From a candidate division TM6 bacterium UASB124 (GTDB taxonomy: Bacteria; Babelota; Babeliae; Babelales; RVW-14): 64,000 nucleotides of DNA. This document shows, piece by piece, positions 38,529-40,058 of the stretch. The DNA lies in assembly GCA_945897315.1 (NCBI GenBank), contig CAMDFF010000002.1, forward strand, positions 91,618-155,617, given 5' to 3'. How positions within the stretch are numbered: position 1 is the stretch's first letter; each line of letters starts with the position of its first letter. The notes under the pieces are model-generated. The model was not told the DNA's origin and did not search any database. It saw only the letters and a list, made by a program, of their open reading frames with translations. The position numbers were made by a program, and so were the translations under genes.

Positions 38529-40058
38529 TCAGTGATAGCAATCCTTGCGATGATTCAAAAGGCTGTCCTCAAAGAATCTCGTTGGGCCTGGGCCTTTTAT
38601 TGCACCATTGGCACGTAGTAATGTCGCGACTGCCCCTTGAGCATAATCAAGAGGGTTTTTACCACTCTTATTGGATGCATTAACATCCGCATGCTCTGCC
38701 AGAAGTAATTCAACTATCGCTATATGATTAGATTTTGCTGCTATGTGTAGTAGCGTGTTACCGGCATTATCTCGAGCTGTTTTGTCAGCCCCGTATCGAA
38801 GTAATAAATTTACCATCTCAAGATGTCCGCCTCCTATTGCTAACATTAGTGGTGTATTCTCAAATTGACCACGCGCATCTCGCACATCAGCCAATCTACC
38901 TATGTTCAGCGCATAGGTAAGAAGTTCAATGACTGACTCTTCTTTGTTATGGTATGCGGCAACATGAAGGGGAGTAAAGCCATGCGGTCCTGGATGTACT
39001 ATATTTCCAGCGGGGCCAACAATACCAAAGATACGATCAATCAATCCTGTATGTGACTGACTTTCTGCTTGTATATCTGCACCTCTGCGCAATAATATTC
39101 GTATGCCTTCTATGTGCCCACGATGTGCTGCAATATGGAGCAATGTCGTTTGGTGATCGTTGTATTGAGCATTCACATCTTTTACGCTCTGAATAATTGC
39201 AAAAACTTGTGCATCGTTGTGCGTTCTAATAGCATTGCGTAGTAAATCAACAGGCGATACAAGCCGAGCAAGTGCTGCAGGTAAGATACCTGGCTGAGCA
39301 CGGCATTTTGGGCACAGAAAACATACGCCCTCCTTGATCTTTAGAGATAACCATTTCGCAATACAGGTGCTATGAAATTCATGTCCACACGGTAGAGAAA
39401 TTATTGGGTCTTTGGGATCAATTGTTCCTGCTATGAAGCAGATAGGACACACATCAGCATCCTCGGCTACGGGAGTGCTGTGTGGGGCTGTAGCCGCAGC
39501 AGCTGTGGAAGAAGAGCCACCACTATGACTACGTGATGCAAGTGCTGGTTTAAGAGACATCATTTCGACAGGCGCTGCAACGCCATCACCTCTTCTGGCT
39601 TCAGGTCGATGCCAGGCAGTATATCCTCGTGGCTGCCGATACTGAGCCAAAATGTGCGTTATTGATTGTGTATAAGTACTATCGGGTGACAGTGCACCCA
39701 TTCCTAAGATTCGTTCGATGCTGTGGGCTAAACGATCTATAATTTTTATCTCAACGTCTGCTACGCCAGCAACAATAGTTGCTGTTGAATCGCGCAGTGC
39801 TTCTGCAGCATTAGTTAATGCTTTGCGTTGCTTTTCATCTAAGACAGAGCATGCCCCGCCGCCACTTGTTGCAGAGAGAGATGGGAAATGCTGTGCCAGC
39901 TTCTGTTGAGCGCGAGCACATATGTCATTGACGGTTATCGCCCGCATGACGTTGCGGCCACTGAGAGAAATACTACGTTCGGGTGTTGGAGCACTTCCCT
40001 GTAGATTGCCAATAAAGCTTATACAAAGAAAGATCGATAAAAACATACATTTTTCCAT
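38529..40058 (-). CDS. Secreted RING-H2 finger + ankyrin-repeat protein (eukaryote-like E3 ubiquitin ligase candidate)
   Basis: Signal peptide MEKCMFLSIFLCISFIGNLQG. RING-H2 pattern CPIC-x16-CGHEFHSTC-x13/16-C..CPKC. At least 4 ANK repeats (TLLHIAAHRGHIEGIRILLRRGADI, TPLHVAAYHNKEESVIELL, TPLMLAIGGGHLEMVNLLLRYGADK, NTLLHIAAKSNHIAIVELLLAEHADVN). RBS AAGAGG 6 nt upstream of the ATG. Confidence 0.8.
   Translation of the reverse strand: MEKCMFLSIFLCISFIGNLQGSAPTPERSISLSGRNVMRAITVNDICARAQQKLAQHFPSLSATSGGGACSVLDEKQRKALTNAAEALRDSTATIVAGVADVEIKIIDRLAHSIERILGMGALSPDSTYTQSITHILAQYRQPRGYTAWHRPEARRGDGVAAPVEMMSLKPALASRSHSGGSSSTAAAATAPHSTPVAEDADVCPICFIAGTIDPKDPIISLPCGHEFHSTCIAKWLSLKIKEGVCFLCPKCRAQPGILPAALARLVSPVDLLRNAIRTHNDAQVFAIIQSVKDVNAQYNDHQTTLLHIAAHRGHIEGIRILLRRGADIQAESQSHTGLIDRIFGIVGPAGNIVHPGPHGFTPLHVAAYHNKEESVIELLTYALNIGRLADVRDARGQFENTPLMLAIGGGHLEMVNLLLRYGADKTARDNAGNTLLHIAAKSNHIAIVELLLAEHADVNASNKSGKNPLDYAQGAVATLLRANGAIKGPGPTRFFEDSLLNHRKDCYH

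Follow-up and report, generated by a model that had tools for sequence, protein, structure and literature searches.

A candidate RING-H2 ubiquitin ligase with ankyrin repeats and a signal-peptide-like N-terminus in Dependentiae

A stretch of 64,000 nucleotides from contig CAMDFF010000002.1, which is called the window below at its whole length, was analysed with regard to one of its genes. This gene is a complete open reading frame (ORF), the product of which, referred to here as the RING-ANK protein, combines a signal-like N-terminus, a helical domain, a RING-H2 finger and ankyrin (ANK) repeats. In an earlier note on this DNA, it was taken to be a candidate effector acting on the ubiquitination of a host. 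The ORF listing confirmed the position given for it there. The gene and its parts are as follows.

38529..40058, minus strand: complete ORF of 509 aa with an ATG start (signal-like N-terminus, helical domain, RING-H2 finger, ankyrin repeats)
39996..40058, minus strand: Sec-type signal-peptide-like segment, residues 1-21 (MEK / CMFLSIFLCISFIG / NLQG), with a predicted cut before SAP
39636..39953, minus strand: orphan helical N-terminal domain, residues ~36-141, with three to four helices in the AlphaFold models
39471..39635, minus strand: disordered Ser/Ala-rich linker, residues ~142-196, with a predicted local distance difference test score (pLDDT) of <50 in both models
39300..39449, minus strand: RING-H2 finger, residues 204-253, from Pfam, Protein Data Bank (PDB) matches and the model
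38589..39266, minus strand: ankyrin-repeat domain of about six repeats, residues ~265-490, with loop insertions near residues 331-360 and 384-402
40070-40065, minus strand: Shine-Dalgarno (SD) sequence AAGAGG, 6 nt 5' of the ATG, by consensus match
40123-40095, minus strand: sigma-70-like promoter-like site TTGACT-17-TATTTT, by consensus match
38475..38518 (arms 38518-38509 and 38488-38479), minus strand: terminator-like hairpin followed by AUUUU, directly after the stop codon

The ligands of the finger (C204, C207, C224, H226, H229, C232, C249 and C252) follow the pattern C-x2-C-x16-C-x-H-x2-H-x2-C-x16-C-x2-C, and all eight C3H2C3 positions fall within the spacing that defines RING-H2 membership, C-x2-C-x(9-39)-C-x(1-3)-H-x(2-3)-H-x2-C-x(4-48)-C-x2-C. 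The Pfam profile zf-RING_2 (PF13639) matched residues 203-253 over positions 2-44 of its 44 with 35.5 bits against a gathering score of 27.3 (E = 1.2e-8), and zf-C3HC4 scored 29.8 bits against a cut-off of 21. Both the complete eight-ligand spacing that had been read from the letters and the profile match that had been proposed as a check were thus found. It had been left undecided whether x13 or x16 separated the last pair from ligand 6; the x16 reading (C249, C252) stood, and the x13 reading, which uses C246, did not, since C249 and C252 were invariant in the protein family described below and C246 varied. In a six-frame regular-expression scan of the 64 kb, the RING pattern was found just twice, both times in ORFs of this family, and the observation is far beyond chance. 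Assignment of the finger as a U-box was rejected, as all eight Cys/His ligands were present, no Pfam U-box match was obtained, and zf-RING_UBOX scored 21.9 bits, below its cut-off of 25.2.

Two AlphaFold2 models were made, one of residues 22-275, with an alignment of family members and 65 short RING proteins, and one of the full-length protein. The RING was modelled at residues ~202-261 with a pLDDT of 85-95. When the model was compared with the PDB by Foldseek, the best 50 matches listed were all RING-containing ubiquitin ligase (E3) structures, among them RNF126, RNF38, HRD1, APC11, RBX1, AO7, RNF13, RNF165, gp78, Arkadia and RNF12. The probabilities were ~1, and the best superpositions reached 1.4-2.0 A over 52-55 columns (RNF12, root-mean-square deviation (rmsd) of 1.4 A over 54 columns; RNF165, TMt 0.79). 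The predicted fold is therefore that of a cross-brace RING whose nearest structures are active RING-H2 E3s, and structure prediction, which had also been suggested as a check, agrees with the RING assignment.

A sequence search of the PDB gave RNF165 (2e-5) and RNF38 (2.2e-5) as the nearest solved sequences, followed by RNF13, RLIM and Arkadia; these entries are active RING-H2 E3s crystallised with UbcH5B~Ub, the ubiquitin-charged form of a ubiquitin-conjugating enzyme (E2). In the RING mechanism, a linchpin Arg is needed for activation of E2~Ub, not for binding of the E2. The CPKCR motif of the RING-ANK protein aligned with CPICR of RNF38, which places R253 at the position of RNF38 R454, the residue that PDB entry 9q8y calls the linchpin in its title. 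Competence calls for Ile or Val before ligand 2, Trp after ligand 6, Pro after ligand 7 and a linchpin Arg or Lys after ligand 8, and these positions were all suitably occupied, by Ile, Trp, Pro and Arg. The first three, I206, W236 and P250, presumably sit at the E2-contact positions of RING-E2 complexes. By every computational criterion, the finger is a RING-H2 domain of the RNF38/Arkadia/RNF13 type.

The RING is followed by the ankyrin domain, in which Pfam Ank (PF00023) was found in four stretches (E = 4e-31, 105.7 bits) and Ank_2 (PF12796) scored 96.4 bits, both above threshold. About six helix-pair repeats were seen at residues 265-490 of the full-length model, with a pLDDT of 85-97, in agreement with the earlier count of at least four repeats. 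In a search of 5.8 billion proteins, the 41 non-self matches to the full-length query covered the ankyrin part only.

The protein family was found by an exhaustive HMMER search of representatives with residues 1-277. Word-indexed searches missed the family through their indexing and not because it was absent: a profile of alignment A1 returned the window's own two proteins only, and a RING-only query returned no candidate. The HMMER search gave ~400 matches to the RING only and two that spanned the N-terminal domain and the RING, P0044 (E = 1e-13) and P0087 (E = 8.5e-6); P0068 and P0092 were added by inspection of the match list. Two forms were distinguished and confirmed with Pfam. The long form has the signal, the helical domain, the RING-H2 finger and ankyrin repeats and comprises the RING-ANK protein, P0044, the P0087 cluster and P0068. 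In the short form (P0092, the protein of L083:20304-22085 and the product of window positions 63417-63992), an acidic or Ser-rich linker lies between the signal and the RING-H2 finger and ankyrin repeats, and there is no helical domain. The P0087 cluster includes MBM3893317.1, annotated as 'hypothetical protein [Candidatus Dependentiae bacterium]'. P0044 and a 593-aa protein are encoded on a 60-kb contig that comes from the same sample as the window and has a similar GC content, and P0092 is encoded on a bacterial contig of another sample. Altogether, the family occupies at least four loci on contigs of the window's sample and has members in at least two other sample sets. A metagenome scan with alignment A5 yielded 80 loci, of which L086 alone was a family member; the rest were RING-only ORFs on contigs of mixed composition. 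All family members whose organism could be placed were Dependentiae, and the others were on unplaced bacterial contigs. Homologs confined to free-living bacteria had been named in the earlier note as a result that would count against its reading; instead, every placeable member belonged to the host-dependent Dependentiae.

Conservation was examined in an alignment of seven family proteins with the RING of RNF38 (alignment A6). Invariant in it were the linchpin Arg, one Phe, the Leu that precedes ligand 3 and all ligands except the fifth, which was Asp in P0068. The Ile before ligand 2 was kept in all seven family proteins and the Trp in five, P0087 and P0068 being those that had lost it. In alignments A1, A2 and A3, the RING ligands were invariant. 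The RING-ANK protein was ~30% identical to P0044 over the N-terminal domain and the RING and ~35% identical to P0087 over the RING region. Since functional residues stayed intact and the architecture recurred at ~30-35% identity, long-term purifying selection is indicated.

The helical domain was common to P0044, P0087 and P0068, with 14 invariant columns in alignment A7. Its pLDDT was ~75 in the N-terminal model and ~55-70 in the full-length model. The domain had no Pfam or PDB relative, and no match to its fold was found among the Foldseek matches listed. The Ser/Ala-rich linker described in the earlier note thus holds for residues ~142-196, which are disordered, and does not hold for residues ~36-141, which form this conserved helical domain in the models.

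The second family gene of the window lies near its end.

63417-63992, plus strand: second family gene, with a signal-like N-terminus, a Ser-rich linker and a RING-H2 finger; frameshifted

In this gene, zf-RING_2 scored 36.7 bits in Pfam. The reading frame is cut off at an A7 run at 63972-63978, and the ankyrin part continues in another frame past the window (L165:8001-8923). On L165, a shift of -1 at the A7 run leads into NTPLLIACSKNRADIVALLLASGAN, which is a perfect ankyrin repeat; next comes a 118-aa ankyrin ORF with a 4-nt overlap. The interrupted gene could be a frameshifted copy or pseudogene, an assembly error, or a slippery or phase-variable site. Just upstream, at window positions 61240-63266 on the plus strand, three consecutive small proteins have signal-like N-termini, and two of them are ankyrin proteins with CaaX-type ends: the product of 61710-62306 ends in ...RCCIVM and that of 62313-63266 in ...RRCVIM. 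The latter box, CVIM, is that of K-Ras4B. Two CaaX ends among 48 ORFs, both on ankyrin proteins, are unlikely to be due to chance.

Two paralogues with a RING-H2 finger and ankyrin repeats were also observed 8 kb apart on the 60-kb contig (ENA ERZ27280251 k141_926491), at L083:20304-22085 (593 aa) and L083:10001-12109 (702 aa). In the 593-aa paralogue, the spacing at ligands 3-4 is unusual (C-x6-H), and the C-terminal residues CSIQ form a CaaX box. Because CaaX boxes are meaningful only in the eukaryotic cytosol, they are the strongest indirect sign that proteins of the RING-ANK class reach the host cytoplasm.

Hydropathy analysis identified the stretch MEKCMFLSIFLCISFIGNLQG/SAP as the most hydrophobic one of the 509-aa protein, with features of n-, h- and c-regions. 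Read by heuristics, the segment consists of K3, then CMFLSIFLCISFIG, then NLQG|S, with L at -3 and G at -1 of the predicted site. The h-region is short, with ~13 residues, and it is the single hydrophobic segment of the protein, at its extreme N-terminus. Structure prediction places a hydrophobic helix at residues 1-21. The family members examined also have a comparable segment with L-x-[GA] at its end. A cleavable type I signal peptide is expected to have a positively charged n-region, an h-region of 10-15 residues and a c-region with a small residue at -1 and a permitted one at -3. On this heuristic reading, the N-terminus resembles a signal peptide, as noted earlier, in its hydropathy, the highest in the protein, and in the comparable segment of its relatives. 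Alternative assignments were rejected: there is no lipobox Cys for a lipoprotein; the RR pair of a Tat substrate occurs in P0044 only and is not conserved; and a start at M5 would have neither the SD spacing nor a charged n-region.

The gene itself looks like an independent, expressible unit, considering its SD sequence, promoter-like site and terminator-like hairpin; the hairpin has an RNA folding free energy of -19.8 kcal/mol (z = -4.8 against shuffles). Its GC content (0.457), GC content at third codon positions (0.324) and codon fit were all within ~1.5 standard deviations of the other 47 window ORFs, and a recent foreign insertion was rejected on these grounds. The same protein was found in two independent assemblies of one sample set, from ENA (a 106-kb contig) and from Logan, and each of them matched the window with 100% identity. 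In view of the in-range codon usage and GC content and of the identical sequence in two assemblies, contamination or a chimera is not credible.

The SecA protein encoded in the window is 87% identical to that of candidate division TM6 bacterium UASB124, 67-77% identical to those of Candidatus Dependentiae/Babeliales metagenome-assembled genomes and at most 57% identical to those of other phyla. Therefore, the genome belongs to Dependentiae. Members of this phylum are described as host-dependent protist parasites that possess ATP/ADP translocases and numerous ankyrin proteins and in which the type II secretion system (T2SS) is conserved (PMC4776705). The genes on either side of the RING-ANK gene are the following.

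33960-38093, minus strand: three tandem paralogous TLC-family ATP/ADP translocases, directly downstream of the RING-ANK gene
40327-42513: RecD2 helicase

Tandem ATP/ADP translocases are a hallmark of energy parasitism. Further flanking genes encode a deoxynucleoside kinase, F-type ATP synthase subunits, SecA, NurA, a PQ-loop protein, ribonucleotide reductase, a MurE-like ligase and a double D-Ala-D-Ala ligase. This is a bacterial gene neighbourhood of the kind seen in energy parasites. Among the neighbours of the RING-ANK gene (the TLC translocases, RecD2, the deoxynucleoside kinase, ATP synthase and hypothetical proteins without Pfam match), there was no gene for a ubiquitin-activating enzyme (E1), an E2, a ubiquitin-like protein (Ubl) or a deubiquitinase (DUB). 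The PADLOC matches on the RING-ANK protein covered its ankyrin repeats only and none lay over the RING.

Several other observations were made in the window. Between RecD2 and the deoxynucleoside kinase, at 42522-44896 on the minus strand, there are two ORFs, of 200 aa and 584 aa, the smaller one with a signal-like N-terminus. Neither matched Pfam or PADLOC, and both may encode additional secreted proteins specific to the lineage. Positions 1-4400 have a lower GC content (0.36 vs 0.42) and carry a GT2 glycosyltransferase and an ORF without Pfam match, and at 3571-4362 a signal-bearing DUF1796 putative papain-like cysteine peptidase is encoded. At 58590-61100 on the plus strand, an 836-aa protein has two complete tandem D-Ala-D-Ala ligase modules according to the Pfam domains of the matching L165 gene, a duplication unusual for a bacterium with a reportedly degenerate envelope. 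A NurA-domain nuclease (29514-30710, plus strand) and a PQ-loop, SemiSWEET-like protein (28946-29575, plus strand) adjoin SecA; both families are uncommon in bacteria.

Further RING genes were met on other contigs. On the contig of P0092, at L166:13206-14892 (ENA ERZ27275609 k141_2497273), two adjacent ORFs encode RING-like and IBR domains (IBR_1, 2.2e-6; IBR, 1.4e-8), an E3-like gene of the RING-between-RING (RBR) type, possibly split, in a bacterium. P0073 (L168:1634-2668, JGI Ga0452216_002997) and P0052, from uncultured bacteria, have a signal-like N-terminus, a helical region and two to three tandem RING-H2 fingers with zf-RING_2 scores of 100-149 bits; the gene of P0073 stands beside prfA, rpmE, ftsZ and ftsA.

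The finger was compared with those of known systems. Monomeric eukaryotic RING-H2 E3s (RNF38, RNF165/Ark2C, Arkadia, RNF12/RLIM, RNF13 and gp78/AMFR) share its C3H2C3 pattern and spacing, E2-contact residues and linchpin Arg. In contrast to them, the RING-ANK protein is encoded by a bacterium and has a bacterial-type signal-like N-terminus and the orphan helical domain; the loop that separates its ligands 6 and 7 has 6-7 additional residues, and its substrate-binding module follows the RING instead of preceding it. The nearest named RINGs outside the family were eukaryotic (Nymphaea, Papaver, Oryza, Ilex, Achlya and fungi). Because this similarity is generic, with a best non-family single-RING E-value of ~1e-9, no donor lineage can be named.

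Among bacteria, the precedent for a real RING ligase is SneRING (SNE_A12920) of Simkania negevensis, a biochemically characterised RING E3 that is active with UbcH5b (PMC12591485). Like the candidate studied here, it is a zinc RING of an obligate intracellular bacterium, one that infects amoebae. It differs in that it belongs to Chlamydiota, carries His/Asn ligand substitutions and a Ser at an E2-contact position, and has an N-terminal RING followed by an alpha/beta DUF, with no ankyrin repeats (PMC12591485). With its canonical ligands, internal RING and C-terminal ankyrin repeats, the RING-ANK protein was rejected as a member of the SneRING family on architecture, the two being compared by description only. 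Babela massiliensis, a cultured member of Dependentiae, has an annotated RING finger domain protein, listed as COG5574 in the supplement of its genome paper (PMC4378268), and CAHE_p0026 of Cardinium hertigii is annotated as a RING-domain putative E3 (PMC3486910). For both, the likeness as RING putative E3s of intracellular bacteria is one at the level of the annotations given by these sources.

The closest functional analogues are AnkB of Legionella and the Ank-F-box (PRANC) proteins of Orientia and poxviruses, in which ankyrin repeats for a host substrate are likewise joined to a module for host ubiquitination. AnkB uses a CaaX box prenylated by the host (PMC7542358), as the 593-aa paralogue would. 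These analogues, whose F-box recruits Skp1-Cul1-Rbx1, are adaptors of host cullin-RING ligases and not ligases in their own right, and they are delivered by the type IV secretion system (T4SS) or by viral expression, whereas the RING-ANK protein would bind an E2 directly and has a Sec-type signal. LubX, GobX, RavN, NleG, AvrPtoB, Lpg2370 and MavM are also E2-binding RING-fold E3 mimics delivered to hosts (PMC12591485, PMC7542358), all of them substrates of the type III secretion system (T3SS) or the T4SS. Of these, the U-box-type LubX, GobX, RavN and NleG lack zinc ligands, whereas the finger described here is a canonical zinc RING-H2. Lpg2370 and MavM, which are RING-type E3 effectors of Legionella (PMC7542358), were recognised only by profile-profile comparison, whereas plain Pfam detects the present finger.

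The same domain order was also seen in viruses. When the full-length model was compared with BFVD, giant-virus RING+ANK proteins made up two of the three best matches, aligned over >360 columns; the rmsd of these alignments was high (19-24 A) because the domains are differently oriented. One such protein, B5LWJ8 ('putative ubiquitin ligase/ankyrin repeat protein', Feldmannia species virus), has the same order of RING, then ankyrin repeats. The giant-virus proteins have neither a signal peptide nor the helical N-terminal domain. A scan of viral contigs (IMG/VR) gave RING-only matches and one 335-aa RING+ANK ORF, on L173.

Taken together, the domain content, the conserved ligands and catalytic residues, the fold predicted, the existence of paralogues and a genomic setting that is bacterial and host-dependent make it probable that the RING-ANK protein is a host-directed, single-polypeptide RING-type E3 effector of obligate intracellular Dependentiae, exported by Sec and released by the T2SS or in vesicles. 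The reading as an effector on host ubiquitination given in the earlier note is thus supported as a hypothesis by the RING profile, the fold, the Dependentiae family and the CaaX-tailed paralogue. According to this proposal, the gene would be transcribed as its own unit, and the pre-protein would pass through SecA/SecYEG by means of the signal peptide, with predicted cleavage at LQG|SAP. In Chromulinavorax, signal peptides are found on 44% of proteins and on 78% of ankyrin proteins, and the Sec system is the proposed route of export (PMC6561590). TM6 genomes have conserved components of the T2SS, together with two copies of gspD (PMC4776705), and from the literature on the phylum, an onward step beyond the periplasm may be inferred, in which the protein would be released by this system or in vesicles. 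In the protist host, the RING-H2 finger would fold around two Zn2+ as a cross-brace. I206, W236 and P250 would then bind an E2 of the host that carries ubiquitin, probably one of the UBE2D/UbcH5 type, and the linchpin R253 would hold E2~Ub in the reactive closed conformation. The ankyrin repeats would capture a host protein and offer it for ubiquitination, and the orphan helical domain may target or oligomerise the RING-ANK protein. The CaaX box of the paralogue points to action in the host cytosol.

Several points weigh against an exported, active ligase. The putative signal peptide was called by heuristics, and a Sec signal by itself takes a protein only as far as the periplasm; there was no T2SS gene within the 64-kb window, and T2SS substrates are unrecognisable from sequence. 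A Cys-rich zinc finger would have to escape periplasmic oxidation and load zinc outside the bacterial cytoplasm. The RING-ANK protein itself ends in ...RKDCYH, which is not an AnkB-type CaaX box. The Foldseek E-values for the RING were modest, 5e-3 to 0.4, as expected of a domain of ~50 residues, although the probabilities were ~1. Finally, two of the E2-contact residues, Trp and Pro, are missing from the P0087 lineage, ligand 5 is replaced by Asp in P0068, and, to judge by these sequences, not every family member need be active.

Some of these points would fit a RING protein that stays at the bacterial surface or in the envelope, as an uncleaved signal-anchored, periplasmic or outer-membrane protein acting only at the interface with the host, where it might modify host proteins touching the bacterium or counter tagging by host ubiquitin. 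The single hydrophobic segment at the extreme N-terminus and the lack of an evident dedicated T3SS or T4SS signal agree with retention, as do the reportedly degenerated cell envelope of Dependentiae (PMC4776705) and the co-purification of SneRING with bacterial surface and secretion proteins (PMC12591485). However, the short h-region (~13 residues) and the small-residue L-x-[GA] site are typical of cleaved signals, not of anchors, and the CaaX box of the paralogue implies free access to a host cytosolic prenyltransferase; retention is considered unlikely. The losses in P0087 (Trp and Pro) and P0068 (Asp at ligand 5) show that catalysis is not under uniform constraint, as would be expected of a decoy or scaffold that sequesters a host E2 through the RING, or a host protein through the ankyrin repeats, without ubiquitin transfer. 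Such a role is quite unlikely for the protein of the window, which keeps the Ile, Trp, Pro and linchpin Arg, the Arg being invariant in all seven proteins compared.

Conjugation operons of the Bil/Bub type, with E1/E2/E3-like genes, are now known in bacteria. The statement of the earlier note that bacteria have no ubiquitin system is therefore no longer strictly true, although its bearing on this gene is retained, as no E1, E2 or Ubl gene is nearby and the N-terminus is signal-like. It is extremely improbable that the RING-ANK protein is part of such a conjugation or defence system acting on bacterial or phage proteins. PADLOC models that contain ankyrin repeats do match its ankyrin part, but their matches leave out the RING; neighbouring E1, E2, Ubl and DUB genes are lacking; the family members that could be placed all come from a host-dependent phylum; and the putative export signal would take the protein out of the cytoplasm, which speaks against a role there. 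Nearly as improbable is an artefact, that is, eukaryotic contamination, an assembly chimera or a functionless, decaying relic of horizontal transfer. The nearest named non-family RING relatives are indeed those of plants, an oomycete and fungi, and the second copy in the window is frameshifted. Nevertheless, the gene is free of introns, has an SD sequence, a promoter-like site and a terminator-like hairpin, shows the codon usage of its neighbours and stands between bacterial genes on the 106-kb contig and in the independent Logan assembly; its intact ORF keeps all functional residues, and the architecture recurs in P0044 and P0087.

The E3 effector reading, which we favour over these explanations, is less novel than had been supposed. 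The earlier claim that a canonical RING-H2 finger with ankyrin repeats behind a Sec signal is not a characterised effector family was overstated in view of the precedents in Babela, Cardinium, SneRING, Lpg2370, MavM and the giant-virus RING+ANK proteins. Bacterial RING ligases and RING genes in Dependentiae are already on record, and signal-bearing ankyrin proteins are the norm in the phylum. As RINGs are already known in intracellular bacteria, the RING-ANK protein is an architectural variation and not a new category. Literature searches found no paper linking Dependentiae with RING and E3 or describing RING-ANK proteins of Dependentiae. What appears to be new is the combination of a canonical RING-H2 finger and ankyrin repeats behind a Sec-type signal, with or without the helical domain, and its occurrence as a small paralogous family, some members of which are CaaX-tailed.

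A broader proposal, which we put forward tentatively and with somewhat more doubt than confidence, is that Dependentiae built and expanded their own family of single-chain zinc-RING E3s, with a different ankyrin array in each copy, some CaaX tails and delivery by the general route of Sec and the T2SS in place of an injection apparatus. If true, this would be the first modular, paralogously diversified family of canonical RING-H2 effectors in bacteria, one that permits 'plug-in' substrate retargeting as a counterpart to what Legionella, Orientia and poxviruses have in their F-box/ANK families. The family may have a common origin with the RING-ANK proteins of those giant viruses that live in the same protists. 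Viewed alongside the CaaX-tailed ankyrin proteins and the RBR-like genes on related contigs, the family points to a broad toolkit directed at ubiquitin in these bacteria.

True zinc RINGs are rare among bacterial E3 mimics, and in obligate intracellular bacteria only SneRING, with its atypical ligands, has been characterised. The RING-ANK protein, in which every catalytic determinant is intact, would show that a plain Sec signal can serve for the delivery of a host-targeting ubiquitin ligase, and its paralogues offer a natural series for mapping substrate specificity. The family provides a directly testable handle on how the almost unstudied Dependentiae manipulate their protist hosts and, if ligase activity is demonstrated, would be a useful entry point into Dependentiae-host biology.

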